A stretch of DNA of 64,000 nucleotides from Thermoplasmata archaeon (GTDB taxonomy: Archaea; Thermoplasmatota; Thermoplasmata; Lutacidiplasmatales; UBA184): assembly GCA_030037955.1 (NCBI GenBank), contig JASHPT010000012.1:2429-66428 (forward strand), written 5' to 3'. Positions 19,219 through 61,888 of the stretch are shown here, piece by piece. Under the pieces are notes generated by a model. The model was not told the DNA's origin and ran no database searches. It was given only the letters and a program-made list of their open reading frames with translations. A program made the position numbers and the translations under genes. Positions within the stretch are counted from its first letter, which is position 1, and the number at the start of each line of letters is the position of its first letter.

Positions 19219-19325
19219 CGGGCTTGGTGGGAGTTTCGCCGCCCCGGTCGCGGCGACGGGCGGATTCGAACCCACGTCTTCGGCTTCGAAGGCCGAAAGG
19301 ATAGTCCAGACTACCCTACAAGCCC
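19219..19325 (-). tRNA. tRNA-Arg (anticodon TCG) with ~32-nt insertion separating the two T-stem halves (putative non-canonical intron near T-loop position 59-61)
   Basis: On the minus strand the acceptor halves are GGGCTTG (19325..19319) and CAAGCCC (19226..19220). U8-A9 are present, and the D-stem is GGGT/ATCC. The anticodon stem is TCGGC/GCCGA with loop CTTCGAA, giving anticodon TCG. The T-stem 5' half GTGGG and T-loop TTCGAAT are followed by about 32 nt (CCGCCCGTCGCCGCGACCGGGGCGGCGAAACT, which folds as a CGCCGC/GCGGCG hairpin). Only then comes the complementary T-stem 3' half CCCAC. The fold was done by eye only. Confidence 0.6.
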
Positions 19326-53033: not shown

Positions 53034-53492
53034 TCAGAAGAACTCCTGCTCCGCCCGGGCGTAGGAGTGGAAATCGTCCGGACGGAAGAACAGGGCGAGC
53101 TCGCGGTCCGCCGACGCGGGAGAGTCGGAGGCATGGATGAGGTTCGGCGTCATCGCGATGGCGAGGTCGCCCCGAACCGTTCCCGGCGCCGCGGTTGCCG
53201 GATTGGTGGCTCCGATCAACAGGCGGACCACCGCGATCGCGCCCCGGCCCTCGACGGCCAGGGCCAGGACGGGGCCGCTCGTGATGTGCCGGACCAGCCC
53301 CTCGTAGAACGGCTTCCCCACGTGTTCTGCGTAGTGCCGGCCGGCGAGGTCGGCCGAGACCCGCAGGAGCCGCGCCGCGACGATCGTGAGACCCTTGCGC
53401 TCGAGGCGGCCCACGATCTCCCCGGACAGCCCGCGCTTGACGGCGTCCGGCTTGAGGAGAACCAGCGTCCTCTCCGTTCCCGCTTCCGGCAT
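53034..53492 (-). CDS. ndk: nucleoside diphosphate kinase
   Basis: [16 protein letters not shown]...NLIHASDS (catalytic His). 152 aa after choosing M72 of the 223-aa ORF. Confidence 0.9.
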
Positions 53493-53550
53493 CGTCGCTG
53501 GTAGGGGTGCGCCGACAAAAGCTTTGACGCGCGCACGGTCCGCCGAGCCG

Positions 53551-54327
53551 GTGCCCATCGAGCGGAGTGCCCGCGTGGGATTCGACCGTGCGGCGGACCG
53601 GTACGAACGCAGCCGGCCGCAAGCGCCACCCGAGGCCATCGAGGCCTTGGTGGCTACGCTCGGGCTGACCCTGCGCTCGACCGTACTCGAGCTGGGTGCG
53701 GGCACGGGAAAGTTCGCGCGGCTCCTGGCGCCGCATGCCGGGCGGTACCTCGCACTCGAACCGGTCCCGGGGATGCGGGCCCAGTTTCACCGGAGCCTCC
53801 CGGGCATTCCGCTGGTCGCCGCCGTGGCGGAGAGAGTGCCTGTCCGGACCGGCCGGGTCGACGCGGTCGTCGCCGTTCAGGCCTTCCACTGGTTCGATGC
53901 GGCCCGGGCGATGCGGGAGATGCATCGGGTGCTGCGGCCCGAGGGCCAGGTCGCGCTCCTCTGGAACACGCGGGACGAATCGGTCGATTGGGTGCATCAG
54001 GCGACCCTCATCCTCGACCGGTACGAGGAGGGTAGCCCGCGGCAATCCCGGGCGGGTTGGCGGCGGTCGTGGTCCGAGAACCCCGGATTCACGCCGCTGG
54101 AGGAGCGCCGGTTCTCGTTCGTCCAGTCGCTGGACCGGGCCACCACGATCGACCGCTTCCTGTCGGTCAGCTTCATCGCCAGCTTGGACGGGCCCCGGCA
54201 CGCCGAGGCCGAAGCCGCCTTCGAACGACTCCTCGACACCCATCCCCAGACGGCGGGGCGGCAGGTGATCGAGCACCCATACCGGTGTGAGGTCTACACC
54301 GCGCGTCGGCTTCCGGACGCGAACTAG
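53551..54327 (+). CDS. class I SAM-dependent methyltransferase (Methyltransf_11-like)
   Basis: [11 protein letters not shown] motif I and [11 protein letters not shown]. The start is uncertain (GTG candidates ~53551 or 53572). It is oppositely oriented to the flanking minus-strand genes. Confidence 0.65.
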
Positions 54328-54836
54328 ATCGCCGCCCGGTCACAGGTCGCATTCCAGGGACATCGGCCGCACCGTCCCCGACTCGGGGTGGCCCGGCCAT
54401 CGTAGACCATCGTCATCTCCCGGCGCAGGTCCAGGAGCTCCGCGCGCAGGACGCCGTTCCACTCGACCCGAATCTCGGTCCCGTCTCCGTAGCGAAGAAG
54501 ACCGTACGGAGGGGGCCGCCCGGTCCACTCCTCGACGAGGAGACAGTACGCGGCCACCTGCATCCGGTGAGAGAACGGCGGCCCGGACCGGGGGGCCGGA
54601 CGTGACTTGAACTCGACCGGAACCCACCGCCCATCGGGCCGCTGCCGGATCTCGTCCGGCCGGCCCGCCAGCGCGTAGCGGGACGACCGAAGGAGTCGCC
54701 CGGGAGACGAGGGCAGGTCCGACTGCACCAGCCGTCCCTCCCTCCGGAGCCGGTGGCTTCGGACGGCGACGAACGTGCCGCCGATCAGCAACGCGCCGCC
54801 GACGAGGAACAGCAGGTCGGCGAGACCGACCGTCAC
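54324..54836 (-). CDS. Cas4/DUF83-like RecB-family nuclease, C-terminal part (TM helix + motifs II, III, QxxxY + CxxCx5C)
   Basis: Putative GTG start at 54836, overlapping the upstream stop as GTGA. Product (M)TVGLADLLFLVGGALLIGGTFVAVRS...GRPDEIRQRPDGRWVPVEFKS...QVAAYCLL...CGRCPWNATC. Confidence 0.5.
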   Translation of the reverse strand: MTVGLADLLFLVGGALLIGGTFVAVRSHRLRREGRLVQSDLPSSPGRLLRSSRYALAGRPDEIRQRPDGRWVPVEFKSRPAPRSGPPFSHRMQVAAYCLLVEEWTGRPPPYGLLRYGDGTEIRVEWNGVLRAELLDLRREMTMVYDGRATPSRGRCGRCPWNATCDRAAI

Positions 54837-55078
54837 AGTCCGCTCCCGAGGGCCCAGGCGAGTACGCAGAGCAGTATCCCCAGACCGAGCAGCCACCACA
54901 CCCAGCCGCCGCGGCCTTCCCAGCGGAGGCGCGACGTCAATTCCCGTTCGTGCACGAGACTCCCTCGGGAACGTGCCTCGATGCTCGCACGGGTCGGCCC
55001 GAGCGGCGGGGGGTGACGGCGGTACCAGAACGCCCGCGGACAGTACGCGTACTCCGCGAGGTCGCTGACGCTCACCCA
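54833..55078 (-). CDS. Cas4/DUF83-like nuclease, N-terminal part (YCPR Cys1 motif) ending in a hydrophobic helix
   Basis: (M)SVSDLAEYAYCPRAFWYRR...SLVHERELTSRLRW..., then GWVWWLLGLGILLCVLAWALGSGL and stop. The GTG start at 55078 avoids overlap with the upstream gene. The ORF-track ATG is at 55111. Confidence 0.45.
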   Translation of the reverse strand, partial: WVSVSDLAEYAYCPRAFWYRRHPPPLGPTRASIEARSRGSLVHERELTSRLRWEGRGGWVWWLLGLGILLCVLAWALGSGL

Positions 55079-56466
55079 CCCGGCGGTGTGGGGAGGGGAG
55101 GCGCCGCCCATGCGGGTCGCTCGGAGCCTGTGGCGCCTTCAAACCGGGGGGTGGAGTGGAAGCTGTCGGAGGGTGGGTCGGGGGCGGGGCCCGGCCGGGT
55201 GGGCCCGGGCCCGGGAGCGGCGCTCGCGCCCCGGCCCGGGAATTGCGGCGACCACTCCCGCAGGATGAGGATCAGGAGCGCGAGGAGGCCGACGCCGAAG
55301 AGGCCGCCCAGGCCCTCGGAGAATCCGCAGGCGCCGCTCTGCTGGCACATCGGGAGCGCCACCGTCGCGTCGAGGATCCCCACCGCGCCCAGGGCGAAGA
55401 GCCACCGGCCATACGCGGGTCCGAGGAGCGCGACCGGTACGAGCCAGATGAGGAAGTTCTCCGTGAACCGCTGCGCCACGAGCGCGACGATGACGGTGAG
55501 GAGGGCGACCGCCGGAACGGCCGACCAGCGTCGGAGATGCACGAACACGATCCCGGCGAGGAGCGCGAGCCCCTGGACCGCGATGAGCACGTCGGACGGC
55601 GGCATCATGTGAAGCGGGATCAGGACGCCGAACTCGTTGATCGAAAGGTCGGCGCGGGTCAGCTGCTGACTGAACAGCAGGCTGTAGGCGTAGTTGCCCC
55701 AGACGAGGCCCACCATGAGGCTGAGTCCGCCGAACACCACGATCGAGATCGCGAGCTCGCGCCAACGGACCCGGCCCGTTCCCGAGAGACCGCCCCAGAA
55801 CGGGAACAGCGACGGAAACTTCACCGTGGAGAGCAGCCCCGCCACGGCGCCGGCGGCCGGATTGCGACGGAGCGCCAGCCAGATCCCGAGCAGGGCCGTG
55901 ACCGGAACGATCGCGCTGTGACCCCCCTGGATCGACCCGACCACCAGCGGAGCAAACACCGGCGTGGTCGCCACGACGAGCGTCGCATACCACCGCTCCC
56001 GGACCGCCAGCGCCCAGGTCAGCGGGATCAGGCTGAGCGCGACGGCATTCCACACCAGCCAGATGCCGACCCGTCCCCCGAGGCTGCCGAGCGCGTCGAG
56101 GAGTACCGACGCGATCCCGTACGGAACGTGCACGGAGTGACCGCACTGGAACGTGACGAACGGATTGATCCCGGCGAGGAGGTTCTGCCCGGACTGCAGC
56201 AAGGCGAGCGTGTCGTCCTCCCCGGCCGAGCAGGGGATCGGTGCGGACTGGATCCAGGCCGCCAGCACGAAGACCACGCCCAGCACGACGGCCACGACCC
56301 GCCAATCCCACGGGATCCTCCGGAGGGAGCCGAGCGGCCGGACGAGGACGCGGTCTACCGCGGCACGGAATGCGGCTGCCCGGGGCCAGCCGTAGAGGAG
56401 CACCAACCCGCCGACGACACCGGCGACGAGCTCGGGCGCCGACGCCGCGAGAACCGAGGAGGTCAA
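55072..56466 (-). CDS. polytopic integral membrane protein, GT-C-like glycosyltransferase (DUF2029/GT87-like) suspected
   Basis: ~11 TM helices. Acidic EDD motif in the first extracytoplasmic loop (SAGEDDTLALL). Pro/Gly-rich C-terminal tail. Confidence 0.6.
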   Translation of the reverse strand: MTSSVLAASAPELVAGVVGGLVLLYGWPRAAAFRAAVDRVLVRPLGSLRRIPWDWRVVAVVLGVVFVLAAWIQSAPIPCSAGEDDTLALLQSGQNLLAGINPFVTFQCGHSVHVPYGIASVLLDALGSLGGRVGIWLVWNAVALSLIPLTWALAVRERWYATLVVATTPVFAPLVVGSIQGGHSAIVPVTALLGIWLALRRNPAAGAVAGLLSTVKFPSLFPFWGGLSGTGRVRWRELAISIVVFGGLSLMVGLVWGNYAYSLLFSQQLTRADLSINEFGVLIPLHMMPPSDVLIAVQGLALLAGIVFVHLRRWSAVPAVALLTVIVALVAQRFTENFLIWLVPVALLGPAYGRWLFALGAVGILDATVALPMCQQSGACGFSEGLGGLFGVGLLALLILILREWSPQFPGRGASAAPGPGPTRPGPAPDPPSDSFHSTPRFEGATGSERPAWAAPPLPTPPGG

Positions 56467-56528: not shown

Positions 56529-56903
56529 TTACGTTGCGGGCTCGGTCGCGGCAGGCTTCTTGGGTCGCGGCTTCTTGGCCGGCGCCGCGGCCCCGGCCGG
56601 TGGGGTGGACTTCGGCTGGGCAGCCTTCTTGGGCGTCGGCTTCGTGCCCGCCTTCCCAGGCTTGGGCGCCGCCGGCGCTGGAGCGGCCTCGGACGTCGGC
56701 TGGCGGCGTTGTTCCGCGAGCCGCTTGAGCTCGTGCGCCCGGGTCCAGCGAAGCCGGTGGCCCACGCGACCGAGACCCAGCTGCTGCTTGCGGCACGACG
56801 AGGAGCAGAAGGCGAAGAGCGAGCCGTCCCGCTTGACGAACAGCTGGCCGGTGCCGGGTTCGATCTCCCCCGCGCAGAAGGAGCAGGTACGGTGGACGAC
56901 CAT
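56529..56903 (-). CDS. rpl24e: 50S ribosomal protein L24e
   Basis: RTCSFCAGEIEPGTGQLFVKRDGSLFAFCSSSCRK zinc-ribbon signature. Lys/Pro/Ala-rich tail. Confidence 0.9.
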   Translation of the reverse strand: MVVHRTCSFCAGEIEPGTGQLFVKRDGSLFAFCSSSCRKQQLGLGRVGHRLRWTRAHELKRLAEQRRQPTSEAAPAPAAPKPGKAGTKPTPKKAAQPKSTPPAGAAAPAKKPRPKKPAATEPAT

Positions 56904-56916
56904 CGGCGGAGCGGCC

Positions 56917-57132
56917 TCACCGCACCGACAGCTTGCGCGCTTCTCGGGCGGTCTCGCGCAGGACGAGTACGTCGCCGACGCGGATCGGTCCCATCACGTT
57001 GCGCGCGATGATCTTTCCGCGGTCCCGACCGGCGAGGACGCGGACCTTGACCTGGGTGGCCTCTCCGGCCATCCCCGTGCGGCCCACGAGCTCCACGACC
57101 TCCGCCGGGGAGCCCTTGTCTTCCTCCGCCAT
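56917..57132 (-). CDS. rps28e: 30S ribosomal protein S28e
   Basis: 71 aa [25 protein letters not shown]...[21 protein letters not shown]. Confidence 0.9.
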
Positions 57133-57163: not shown

Positions 57164-57535
57164 TTACTTCTTGAGCGTCGCGAAGGCGCCGGTGAGCTCG
57201 TCGAGGATTCCCTTCGCCTCGCCGGCGTCGACCACGGCGACGCTCGCCGCCGACTTGGTGAGTCCGGCGGCCTGGCCGAGCCGCTGCTTCTTGGACACGT
57301 ACAGGTACGGGATCCGCTTCTCCTCGCAGAGCATCGGGATGTGGGCGAGGATCTCGATCGGGTCGACGTCCTCGGCCATCACGACCAGCTTGGCCTCGAC
57401 GCGTTCGCTCGCCTTCGTTACCTCGTTCGTCCCGATGCGGACCTTCCCGGTCTCCCGGGCGATCTGCACGAGCTGGAGGGCCTTGTCGGCGATTTCGGCG
57501 GGAGTCTCGAACCGGATATAGATCGCTCGCGTCAT
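57164..57535 (-). CDS. rpl7ae: 50S ribosomal protein L7Ae (K-turn binding)
   Basis: 123 aa with the ...[29 protein letters not shown]...IPYLYV signature. Confidence 0.9.
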
Positions 57536-57651: not shown

Positions 57652-58701
57652 CTACGGAAGGAGCGAGCCGGGGATGCTGCCGGGATGCTCGGCGAAGAAG
57701 CGCTTCGCCGGCTCCGTGACCCGCGCCAGGCCGGCCGCGACGGCCGCCTTGAGGTCCTGGGGATGCAGCGCACCGGACCGCCAGACCTTGAGGAACTCCT
57801 CCTCGCCGACGAGGTCGAGGGACCCGCCGTGCTTCGGGGCCCGGTCGACCGCGAGGTGGCCCTCCCACGGGATCACGACGTACCGTGCGAGCTCGACGAC
57901 CGGATTGCCGTCCACCTCCTTGGCGGGACAGTACGCCGCCGCCAGCCGGTCCGCGATGAGCTCGGGCTCGGCGTGGATCGGGATGCCGGCGTCCGGGTCG
58001 GACTTCGACATCTTCTTCTCGACGGTCAGGGACTCCGGGTCCATCCGGCCTCCTCCCTTGAGCGACGACACGAGCGGGGTGTGCACCCCGATCGGCACCG
58101 GCCACCGGTAGTGGTGCGCGACCTCGCGGGCCAGCACGTGCGCCCGGCGCTGGTCGACGCCGGCATAGGCGATATCGACGGGAAGCTGGAAGATGTCGGC
58201 GGCCTGCATCGAGGGGTAGAACAGCTTCGCCGTGTCGAGGTTCGCCTCCTCTTCGCCACGCCCCATGATCGGCAGGGCTCTCCGGGACCGTGCGAGGGAG
58301 GTCGCCTTCGCGACCCGGACCACCCGGTCCCAGTAGCCGGGCTCGGCCTGCAGCTCCTGAGCCCAGCGGAACCGCGTGCGCGCGGGGTCGACCCCGAGGG
58401 CGATGAACGCCTCCTGCATGTAGCGCCCGGCGTCCCGAATCCGATCCAGCGACCCGTCCAGCTTGTCGTTGATCCAGGCGTGCCAGTCGGCCAGGAATAC
58501 CGTGAGCTGGCAGCCGGCGTCCGTGAGGTCCCGCATCTTCCGCGCGGTGACCAGATGCCCGACGTGCAGGAGGCCGGAGGGCTCGAAGCCGATGTAGGCC
58601 CGGGGCGCCGACTCTCGCTCGAAGAGCGGCCGGAGCTCCTCCGGGGTCAGGACCTCCGCGGTGTTCCGAACGATGCGGGCGACGCGCTCGTCGAGGTCCA
58701 C
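57652..58701 (-). CDS. tyrS: tyrosine--tRNA ligase (archaeal type)
   Basis: AYIGFEPSGLLHVGH (HIGH) and KMSKS motifs. GTG start at 58701 (349 aa), 21-29 nt downstream of the TATA cataaatag. The ORF-track start at 58800 is over-extended. Confidence 0.85.
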   Translation of the reverse strand: MDLDERVARIVRNTAEVLTPEELRPLFERESAPRAYIGFEPSGLLHVGHLVTARKMRDLTDAGCQLTVFLADWHAWINDKLDGSLDRIRDAGRYMQEAFIALGVDPARTRFRWAQELQAEPGYWDRVVRVAKATSLARSRRALPIMGRGEEEANLDTAKLFYPSMQAADIFQLPVDIAYAGVDQRRAHVLAREVAHHYRWPVPIGVHTPLVSSLKGGGRMDPESLTVEKKMSKSDPDAGIPIHAEPELIADRLAAAYCPAKEVDGNPVVELARYVVIPWEGHLAVDRAPKHGGSLDLVGEEEFLKVWRSGALHPQDLKAAVAAGLARVTEPAKRFFAEHPGSIPGSLLP

Positions 58702-58721
58702 GTTTGCGCGAGGAACCGCGG

Positions 58722-58730
58722 CTCTATTTA
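58722..58730. promoter_or_regulatory. shared/bidirectional TATA element (ctctattta / taaatagag) between tyrS and the HExxH gene
   Basis: The only AT-rich element in the 52-nt divergent spacer. It lies 21-29 nt from the tyrS GTG (58701) and ~27 nt from the plus-strand ATG (58753), implying leaderless mRNAs on both sides. Confidence 0.5.
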
Positions 58731-58752
58731 TGCCCCCATGTTGAAACCCCCG

Positions 58753-59310
58753 ATGGGTCCCGAACTTTCTCCGACCCGCCGACTTTTGCGCTGGCCCCAC
58801 GCGCGCGAGCTTCTGGGGCCGGTCGCCCAGGTGTCCGCGGAGTTTCCAGAGCTCGTCGGCCTCCGCGTCCGGGTCGACCTACTGCCCTGGGGGTCGCGGC
58901 GGCTCGGCGCTGCCTCGATCCTCGAGCGGCCCCCGCGGGTCGCCTTCCACCCGGAGCTGGCACGTCGACCCGAAGAGCTGGCCGCGACCGCCGCCCACGA
59001 GTTCATGCATCTCCTCCAGTGGCCGCTCCAGCGGATTCCGAACGGGGAACGGGCCTGCGACCTGTTCGTGCTCGCACGATTCGGGACCCGGTTCCAGGGC
59101 CCTCCATACTACCTGCATGTCCCCCGTCGTGCCCGGACCCACTGGGCCGAGTGGGCTCCCCTCGCCCAGGAGCTCGCCGTACGGGCCCTCGACGAACGCC
59201 GTCAGGGACGGCGCCAGTATCTTCGGTGGTGGGAGGAGGAGTTCCGGTCCCGGATCCCCCCGGCGGTGTCGGGCGGCTGGGCCCCCGGTCTCTCCCTGGC
59301 GCCGGGGTAA
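58753..59310 (+). CDS. putative zinc metallopeptidase (HExxH motif; SprT/DUF45-like)
   Basis: AAHEFMHLLQW motif. ATG at 58753 (MGPELSP...), ~27 nt downstream of the shared TATA ctctattta. An alternative ATG lies at 58738. It is the C-terminal part of the otherwise antisense 541-aa ORF on the track. Confidence 0.45.
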   Translation: MGPELSPTRRLLRWPHARELLGPVAQVSAEFPELVGLRVRVDLLPWGSRRLGAASILERPPRVAFHPELARRPEELAATAAHEFMHLLQWPLQRIPNGERACDLFVLARFGTRFQGPPYYLHVPRRARTHWAEWAPLAQELAVRALDERRQGRRQYLRWWEEEFRSRIPPAVSGGWAPGLSLAPG

Positions 59311-61568: not shown

Positions 61569-61888
61569 CCGCTAGGCTAGACCGGGGGGTTGGGCGTCCC
61601 CTTTTACACCGAAACCGTCCTCAGCGGGGGTGACAGGCAGGAGCGACGCGCACCGAGGGAGTCCGTCTCGTTCGTCTCCGTCGACGCTCTGTTCCACTGG
61701 GCCGCGGGCACCGCGACGAGCGCTCGGAGGAGCGCCCTAGCGGTTACCCATCACGGGAACCGGGTCAGGTCCTGACGGGAGCAGCCTTACCGTGACCCGA
61801 CGACGCTGGTGGGGCGACGGGGCTGAGGAGCGGACGGGGTCTCCGGACCCTCCCGGTGCGCGGCCACCCTGCCGGCCTAGCACGGCGA
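61569..61888 (+). ncRNA. signal recognition particle RNA (7S / SRP RNA), archaeal type
   Basis: Begins ~25 nt downstream of the TATA ctatatat. The 5' CGCUAGGCUAGACCGGGGGG...ACACCGAAACCG is Alu-domain-like. Conserved helix-8 sequence GGUCAGGUCC-UGAC-GGGAGCAGCC at ~61762-61786. The 3' GCCGGCCUAGCACGG pairs with the 5' end. Overlapping plus-strand ORFs are spurious. Confidence 0.65.

Follow-up and report, generated by a model that had tools for sequence, protein, structure and literature searches.

Two overlapping genes of Thermoplasmata archaea encode complementary halves of a probable membrane-anchored Cas4-family nuclease

A 64-kb stretch of a Thermoplasmata archaeon genome (64,000 nucleotides (nt) of contig JASHPT010000012.1; hereafter the window) carries on its minus strand two overlapping open reading frames (ORFs), ORF1 and ORF2, that probably encode the two subunits of a single Cas4-family PD-(D/E)XK nuclease anchored in the cytoplasmic membrane. 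By motif and profile matches, ORF1 and ORF2 are complementary parts of one Cas4-type domain; a predicted hairpin of two membrane helices lies between these parts, and its very short loop is the point at which the gene is interrupted. The pair is real, conserved and widespread, and its architecture is unusual. By motifs and fold it belongs to the Cas4 family and, by genomic context, to the solo-Cas4 group.

Layout of the gene pair

The pair and its parts occupy the following positions of the window (aa, amino acids):

54833..55111, minus strand: ORF1, N-half subunit, ATG 55111 to TGA 54835-54833, 92 aa
54941..55075, minus strand: soluble Cas4 N-terminal segment, ORF1 aa 13-57, with the YCPR cysteine motif and the GxxxH motif
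54845..54904, minus strand: predicted membrane helix 1, ORF1 aa 70-89 (W70-G89), WVWWLLGLGILLCVLAWALG, with 3 residues after the helix
54843..54847, minus strand: GGGAG, Shine-Dalgarno-like, inside the end of ORF1 and 6 nt upstream of the ORF2 GTG
54833..54836, minus strand: GTGA junction, TGA of ORF1 overlapping GTG of ORF2; at the protein level, the loop between the membrane helices
54324..54836, minus strand: ORF2, C-half subunit, GTG 54836-54834 to TAG 54326-54324, 170 aa
54762..54824, minus strand: predicted membrane helix 2, ORF2 aa 5-25 (L5-V25), LADLLFLVGGALLIGGTFVAV, followed by RSHRLRREGR
54339..54701, minus strand: nuclease core, ORF2 aa 46-166, with motif II, ExK, QxxxY and CxxCx5C

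A first-pass annotation of the window had proposed a Cas4/DUF83-type Fe-S nuclease divided between two GTGA-coupled ORFs, and the overlap of GTG and TGA at 54836-54833 can be read directly in the minus strand; all of the motifs that it quoted are found in ORF1 and ORF2. It gave the span as 54324-55078, of which the lower end is right and the upper end misses the ATG by about 33 nt. An alternative ORF1 start, the GTG at 55075, makes a second GTGA with the stop codon of an upstream gene for a 464-aa membrane protein. We favour ATG 55111 because Trp12, which is in frame with ORF1, is kept in every homologue called with an N-terminal extension. Read from this ATG, ORF1 overlaps the upstream membrane gene by 40 nt.

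Complementary Cas4 motifs in the two ORFs

The catalytic and cysteine residues of the Cas4 family are divided between the two products. ORF1 contributes Cys24, within SDLAEYAYCPRAFWY (aa 16-30), and His54, within VHERE, while ORF2 contributes Asp61 (GRPDEI), Glu75 and Lys77 (VEFK), Gln93 and Tyr97 (QVAAY), and Cys156, 159 and 165 (CGRCPWNATC). Neither ORF therefore holds a full catalytic centre or a full four-cysteine site; the four cysteines of the predicted [4Fe-4S] cluster are all present, but they are spread over two polypeptides. In solved Cas4 structures, the fourth cysteine and the metal-binding His sit in the same domain as the other motifs.

Profile matches divide in the same manner. 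In the PDDEXK_1 (PF12705) profile, positions 2-43 correspond to ORF1 aa 13-55 and positions 107-247 to ORF2 aa 32-167 (in a 171-codon translation; subtract one for ORF2 numbering), with scores of 36.7 bits for ORF2, above the gathering threshold of 22, and 21.5 bits for ORF1, just under it. The 180-position TIGR00372 cas4 model is matched at positions 2-42 by ORF1 aa 14-57 and at positions 60-178 by ORF2 aa 48-165, and the Cas4 models of PADLOC give the same complementary pattern on ORF1 and ORF2. These matches bear out the proposed division of one nuclease between two ORFs. Against PF01930, ORF2 reaches 19.9 bits, under the cut-off of 22.7.

Profiles built from homologues of each half also align with solved Cas4 proteins. 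The ORF2-homologue profile matches SSO0001 (4IC1) over GRADAI, IEIK and QLQIY, so that the ORF2 catalytic residues align with D99, E113, K115 and QxxxY of that protein. The ORF1-homologue profile matches Pcal_0546 (4R5Q) over FEYCPR...RGRILHERY, where ORF1 Gly50-x3-His54 aligns with RGRILHERY; the counterpart of this His in SSO0001 is His62.

These residues are also the ones that are conserved. Among ORF1 homologues, D17, E20, Y21, Y23, C24, P25, R26, Y30, G50 and H54 are invariant, and among 25 ORF2 homologues Asp61, Glu75, Lys77, Gln93, Tyr97 and the three cysteines are invariant. When unsplit relatives, in which both halves belong to one chain (see below), are included in the alignment, all four cysteines remain invariant, and His47 of that alignment, which equals ORF1 His54, is at least 90% conserved. 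If nuclease function had been lost and the pair were a membrane Fe-S sensor (redox or iron) or a structural protein, the invariance of the cysteines would be accounted for, as would the lack of conserved nucleic-acid partner genes nearby. However, His, Asp, Glu-x-Lys, Gln and Tyr are invariant or nearly so in both split and fused members, which would be unexpected after catalysis was lost, and we regard such a loss as very unlikely.

Membrane helices, topology and predicted structure

The first-pass annotation had assigned a hydrophobic helix to each ORF, and both a hydropathy analysis of 79 homologous pairs (19-residue Kyte-Doolittle window) and a structural model agree with it. All 79 pairs retain both hydrophobic segments, with Kyte-Doolittle maxima of median 2.42 and minimum 1.58 in ORF1 and of median 2.38 and minimum 1.74 in ORF2. 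Across the pairs, the stretch beyond helix 1 is only about 2 residues long, and that ahead of helix 2 about 5. Lys and Arg are distributed unevenly around both segments, with a mean of 2.9 in the 12 residues preceding helix 1 against 0.5 in the tail after it, and of 4.05 in the 12 residues following helix 2 against 0.2 before it. Since this distribution fits the positive-inside rule, the soluble parts of ORF1 and ORF2 would both be cytoplasmic, with the two short free ends outside, a topology that fits the need for Fe-S cluster insertion in the cytoplasm.

We modelled the concatenated window sequence with AlphaFold2 from an unpaired alignment that combined homologues of ORF1 and of ORF2 with naturally fused relatives. 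For this artificial fusion, the mean predicted local distance difference test (pLDDT) score was 91.2 and the predicted template modelling (pTM) score 0.87. In the joined model, two helices (residues 41-66 and 68-90) are followed by a loop (91-94), and a further helix (95-125) leads into the beta core; the gene boundary (residues 92/93) falls exactly within the 91-94 loop. As modelled, the chain has a Cas4/RecB nuclease fold. A Foldseek search with the joined model returned the same set of top matches, and the nuclease domains of AddB, AdnAB, Dna2 and Exo5 are strong structural matches. Because the match exceeds the soluble part of ORF2 alone, the ORF1 segment is part of the matched fold.

Conservation of the split

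To survey relatives of the pair, we scanned GTDB with one genome per species and obtained 574 loci with an ORF2 relative, the best 80 of which come almost entirely from soil and peat metagenome-assembled genomes (MAGs) named 'Thermoplasmata archaeon'. A search with the concatenated protein gave 213 relatives; among the 120 matches listed, every one covers the ORF2 part and almost all have a length of about 170 aa. Searching with ORF1 added 18 proteins, 79-95 aa long, and the exact 92-aa ORF1 protein (P0121) occurs on at least 12 contigs. We then searched stop-to-stop ORFs of 86 related loci with the family profiles. In 84 of the 86, the ORF2 homologue is immediately preceded by an ORF1 homologue; the other two loci are truncated by contig ends. 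Two separate genes persist in 82 of the 84, over a range of 46-92% protein identity, and there ORF2 is in the -1 frame relative to ORF1.

The two-gene split is thus evolutionarily conserved as judged from these homologues. The first-pass annotation had offered, as its own alternative, a single Cas4-like gene broken by a frameshift, whether a sequencing artefact or a fresh mutation that left a pseudogene. The ORFs are indeed one frame apart with a 4-nt overlap, a relation that a 1-nt indel could produce, and one related locus (L066) does bear a 1-nt indel in this gene. However, the 788 nt of ORF1 and ORF2, junction included, are identical in three assemblies from different samples (GCA_030052295.1, Logan SRR21679865 and Logan SRR21679859). 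Across species, the junction sequences vary while both frames stay intact, and the overlap is most often 4 nt (36 loci), followed by 19 nt (18 loci) and 16 nt (11 loci), while a few loci have 1, 10, 13, 22 or 28 nt. Both products, moreover, retain the invariant catalytic residues and the membrane helices. Given the identical assemblies and the differing junctions with intact frames, we exclude a frameshift artefact for practical purposes, leaving it a vanishingly small probability. The comparison with homologues that the first-pass annotation had suggested therefore favours a genuine split.

Apparent fusions within the clade of the window do not withstand inspection, and no true fusion was found there among the word-indexed search matches. 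The 251-aa P0005, labelled 'Cas4' in a Joint Genome Institute (JGI) metagenome, is an upstream over-extension in the wrong frame and was rejected as a natural fusion. L066 was rejected likewise; its 1-nt indel bypasses membrane helix 1, which is intact in another frame.

Two further observations concern these reading frames. At L066 (3689-4426 of OY970259.1, a Thermoplasmata MAG chromosome), the indel fuses the soluble part of ORF1 in frame with ORF2 and the read-through skips helix 1; the indel reflects a sequencing error or else a mutation of very recent date, and the fused product would set the halves on opposite sides of the membrane. In the window, an ORF of 272 aa at 54324-55142 on the minus strand is a spurious read-through of ORF1 in the ORF2 frame, homologous to the P0005 extension; at about 71% G+C, long spurious ORFs open in other frames.

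The constant frame relation could also reflect a programmed -1 frameshift or stop-codon readthrough that joins the ORFs into a single hairpin chain, as in the unsplit relatives. ORF2 lies at -1 in all but two of the 84 loci, the exceptions being L066 and L071, a short contig with an unclear start, and the single-chain relatives show that a fused product is viable. A locus of another lineage (L089) even has its two ORFs in frame, one stop codon and one codon apart. Against translational joining, the junction sequences vary widely and contain no conserved slippery heptamer, while the frame relation is explained by descent with overlapping genes; overlaps of up to 28 nt would, furthermore, duplicate or scramble residues of a shifted product. 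ORF2 start codons are found at or near the junction, and a Shine-Dalgarno-like G-rich motif precedes the inferred ORF2 start, within -14 to -4, at 55 of 76 loci, compared with 19% of control windows, an enrichment that is suggestive only, as the starts were chosen by rule. We therefore consider translational joining highly improbable and favour separate synthesis of two subunits.

Single-chain relatives and the extent of the family

To place the pair among more distant relatives, we searched 1.84 billion cluster representatives with a family profile, which gave 2327 matches at E <= 1e-3 and 855 at E <= 1e-10, and inspected the top 150. Of these, about 107-109 measure about 170 aa and consist of one membrane helix and the C-half; about 27 others are single chains in which the N-half is followed by 2, 4-6 or about 10-12 membrane helices (crude counts) and then by the C-half. 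The single chains (hmmsearch E-values 1e-30 to 1e-23) share the motifs of the pair and the same insertion point for the helices. They occur in the cultured archaea Methermicoccus shengliensis (WP_052353351.1) and Methanofollis formosanus (WP_220682637.1) and in marine Poseidoniia (MDP6236266.1), and are annotated only as 'Cas4' or 'Dna2/Cas4 domain-containing protein'. In four of the four members of about 170 aa from other lineages that we followed up (L089, L090, L091 and L095), an N-half ORF ending in a C-terminal membrane helix lies directly upstream. One of these, L089 (3750-4030 of GCA_020630175.1), has the bacterial-type neighbours FtsW, SSB, NAD kinase and a RecN-like SMC/AAA protein. 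The split is thus conserved in many archaea and some bacteria. The pair is no isolated case: in the sample examined, the two-gene form is the commonest architecture of a large family.

By neighbour joining, a crude C-half tree implies at least seven switches between split and fused forms; in it, two-helix fused forms are scattered among split ones, and multi-helix forms group together. In this sample, the hairpin loop looks like a permissive site of repeated fission or fusion.

The excess of split over fused representatives (about 107 versus 27) and the at least seven state changes could mean that the split confers a selective advantage, as would be expected if ORF2 were a working enzyme or protein on its own and ORF1 a separate small membrane regulator, with the split as a control device. 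Most of the catalytic motifs do lie in the ORF2 core. ORF2 alone, however, is without the invariant fourth cysteine and the metal-binding His, which both come from ORF1 and, as noted above, sit within the same domain in solved Cas4 structures, and the overlapping, coupled genes argue for equal and simultaneous synthesis. Independent function of ORF2 is therefore unlikely in our view, whereas a version of this proposal in which assembly of the halves is regulated is compatible with two subunits of one nuclease.

Several individual relatives deserve mention. The N-half ORF of L089 was not called by the annotator; only one stop codon and one codon separate it from the C-half (…RLVF*GMNAAG…), and stop-codon readthrough is possible there. 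P0170, P0177, P0196 and P0285 (320-357 aa) have about 4-6 membrane helices inserted between the Cas4 halves, and P0191, P0200, P0215 and P0242 (557-596 aa) about 10-12. The multi-helix single chains form a coherent clade with a C-terminal HRNHxRxGKCRxCSRRxxCPERL motif, and look like cases in which a polytopic membrane domain has grown inside a nuclease domain. Proteins such as P0171 (243 aa), which start with membrane helices and are without the N-half, were considered as a split at another loop; for P0171 this was rejected. It lies at the edge of a contig (L096, Logan SRR11308166) whose positions 1-30 resemble a sequencing adapter (…GTGTGCTCTTCCGATCT), and is therefore probably truncated.

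Genomic context

The pair lies between ribosomal protein genes and a methyltransferase gene:

57652-58800, minus strand: Tyr/Trp-tRNA synthetase
57164-57535, minus strand: L7Ae
56917-57132, minus strand: S28e
56529-56903, minus strand: L24e
55072-56466, minus strand: 464-aa multi-pass membrane protein with a Pro/Gly-rich C-terminal tail
53386-54327, plus strand: methyltransferase, convergent with ORF2

Beyond the methyltransferase lie NDK, Sua5/YrdC and methionine aminopeptidase. The order L7Ae-S28e-L24e-[pair]-NDK-Sua5 is kept in about 70-80 of 85 related loci, and the ribosomal-protein and NDK/Sua5/methyltransferase neighbours recur in 69-80 of them. We found no CRISPR array within the 64-kb window and no cas gene among the called flanking genes of the inspected loci, all of which are housekeeping or uncharacterised. 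Within the window, the pair thus has the context of a solo-Cas4, outside cas loci, and not that of a CRISPR adaptation Cas4, as the first-pass annotation had proposed. Its suggestion of a link to viruses or mobile elements, on the other hand, finds no support in the conserved housekeeping cluster and the uniform G+C content (0.69-0.73), and we reject a mobile-element or island origin on the same grounds. Membership of a defence system was rejected as well, PADLOC having matched nothing but Cas4, Cas1-fusion and, weakly, DruK nuclease-domain models.

In sequence and in structure, the pair nevertheless matches CRISPR Cas4 proteins best, and JGI labels homologues Cas4, as would be expected of an adaptation Cas4 that acts in trans with cas1-cas2 elsewhere in the genome or of one carried by a virus or mobile element. 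Both versions are at odds with the absence of an array from the window and of cas genes from the flanks, and with the uniform G+C and a position between L24e and NDK that is kept in about 70-80 of 85 loci. A membrane tether is, in addition, a poor fit to the soluble Cas4-Cas1-Cas2 complex. We accordingly give this explanation little probability.

Related loci offer no common partner. The fused relative of Methanofollis adjoins RNase H and TrmO, and that of Poseidoniia lies near THEP1, Trm1 and TruD. The Methanofollis homologue (L086, 5576-6825 of M. formosanus CP037968.1) shares 4 nt with the stop of the RNase H gene upstream, and TrmO comes after it; this RNase H is the sole nucleic-acid-enzyme neighbour that we saw, and other loci do not conserve it. 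The 464-aa membrane protein of the window was rejected as a functional partner, since, among about 64 loci whose upstream sequence extends far enough, only 8 have it. Where found, it lies between L24e and ORF1 at 65-83% identity, and it has no Pfam or PADLOC match; its gene is a lineage-specific insertion.

Proposed mechanism and role

The arrangement suggests how the two products could form one enzyme. The overlapping stop and start codons, together with the Shine-Dalgarno-like motif, would couple translation and thereby ensure joint synthesis of the two subunits. The two helices would then pair within the membrane, and a [4Fe-4S] cluster held by one cysteine from ORF1 and three from ORF2 would staple the halves into the canonical Cas4 fold, which the shared metal site would help to lock on the cytoplasmic face. 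The assembled, metal-dependent nuclease might cut DNA ends or single-stranded DNA, like Cas4, AddB and Dna2, while confined to the inner face of the membrane.

A membrane location would limit what a Cas4-type nuclease can act on to DNA found at the boundary of the cell. Because the pair would be membrane-tethered and is independent of cas genes, incoming or membrane-proximal DNA is a possible target, and we may speculate that the enzyme acts independently of CRISPR on linear incoming DNA (viral, plasmid or imported) or on membrane-proximal chromosomal ends. If true, a role on incoming DNA would constitute a CRISPR-independent, innate 'gatekeeper' use of the Cas4 fold. A broader proposal, that the family is a widespread and unrecognised class of two-subunit membrane Fe-S nucleases in archaea and some bacteria, with both the [4Fe-4S] cluster and the catalytic centre assembled from two chains, that guards the inner side of the membrane and degrades or processes linear DNA entering the cell, strikes us as doubtful, as does the role on incoming DNA itself.

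Several points weigh against the two-subunit nuclease or its proposed role. Expression, assembly, cluster binding, membrane insertion and nuclease activity of the pair are all predicted from sequence, and the joined model, as an artificial fusion computed with natural fused relatives in its alignment, is no independent test of a heterodimer. An additional cysteine, Cys98 (AAYC), is nearly invariant and could be an alternative cluster ligand. Neither half reaches the TIGR00372 cut-off of 65 bits (ORF1 24.1, ORF2 52), so that both fall short of the score required of a single Cas4 polypeptide, because each is only part of the domain; unsplit relatives do exceed this cut-off (P0164 98.7, P0211 94.8, P0191 86.8). 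Finally, no partner gene is conserved across lineages, and the neighbours differ and indicate no pathway. With no conserved partner and lineage-specific neighbours, a role on incoming DNA is without direct support.

Comparison with known systems

Cas4-family nucleases are often found outside CRISPR loci, and little is understood of what they do there. To our knowledge, the pair would, if confirmed, be the first nuclease with an Fe-S 'staple' and an active site shared between two chains.

Compared with CRISPR Cas4 (TIGR00372, PF01930/DUF83, COG1468; structures 4IC1, 4R5Q, 8D3L of type I-C, and Cas4-Cas1 7MI4), the pair is without CRISPR or cas context and has a two-helix membrane hairpin between the His-bearing helix and motif II; its gene is cut in the hairpin loop, so that the active and cluster sites would be shared by two polypeptides. 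Described solo-Cas4 proteins (PMC5704561; Methanosarcina mazei, PMC12501428) likewise lie away from cas operons and have a similarly poorly understood role, but they are single soluble chains, whereas the pair is split and predicted to be membrane-anchored. The words 'transmembrane' and 'split' do not occur in the Cas4 survey of Hudaiberdiev et al. 2017 (PMC5704561), nor does 'membrane' in the M. mazei solo-Cas4 paper (PMC12501428). In line with the claim of the first-pass annotation that a split, membrane-anchored Cas4-like nuclease was undescribed, our search of the open-access literature found no description of a membrane-inserted or split Cas4; an earlier mention elsewhere is possible.

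The single-chain membrane-inserted relatives share the family, motifs, insertion point and housekeeping contexts of the pair but are one polypeptide, where the clade of the window uses two genes. The 'iron-staple' domains of AddB, AdnAB, Dna2 and Exo5 have the same arrangement of one N-terminal and three C-terminal cysteines around a RecB-type core; these, however, are domains of large soluble helicase-nucleases, whereas here the staple would join two membrane-anchored chains. RmuC and COG4741 (Kosinski et al. 2005, PMC1189080) also combine a membrane helix with a cytosolic PD-(D/E)XK domain, and for COG4741 a guard function against incoming DNA has been proposed (PMC1189080). The analogy is functional only, as these proteins belong to other branches (McrC-like and YraN-like), have one N-terminal helix and no Fe-S cluster, and are unsplit.

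The architecture of the family, distinct and conserved, is lost when current annotation reduces it to 'Cas4' or 'PD-(D/E)XK nuclease family protein', and single-protein score cut-offs in annotation and in Cas4 surveys will miss or mislabel both halves. A natural split pair with fused relatives also provides a ready system for studying assembly through helix pairing and cluster insertion.

Other features of the window

The ORF2 stop (TAG 54326-54324, minus strand) and the methyltransferase stop (TAG 54325-54327, plus strand) overlap in the palindrome CTAG; this tail-to-tail overlap is 4 nt in L001, as in the window, and 29 nt in L002. Within the region that encodes the Pro/Gly tail of the 464-aa protein, positions 55171-55221 hold a 26-nt tandem duplication (2 copies, 76% match). 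The sole Rfam matches at gathering threshold in the 64 kb are one transfer RNA (19251-19325, minus strand) and an archaeal signal recognition particle (SRP) RNA (61570-61882, plus strand, 132 bits), a result that confirms that the window is part of an archaeal chromosome.

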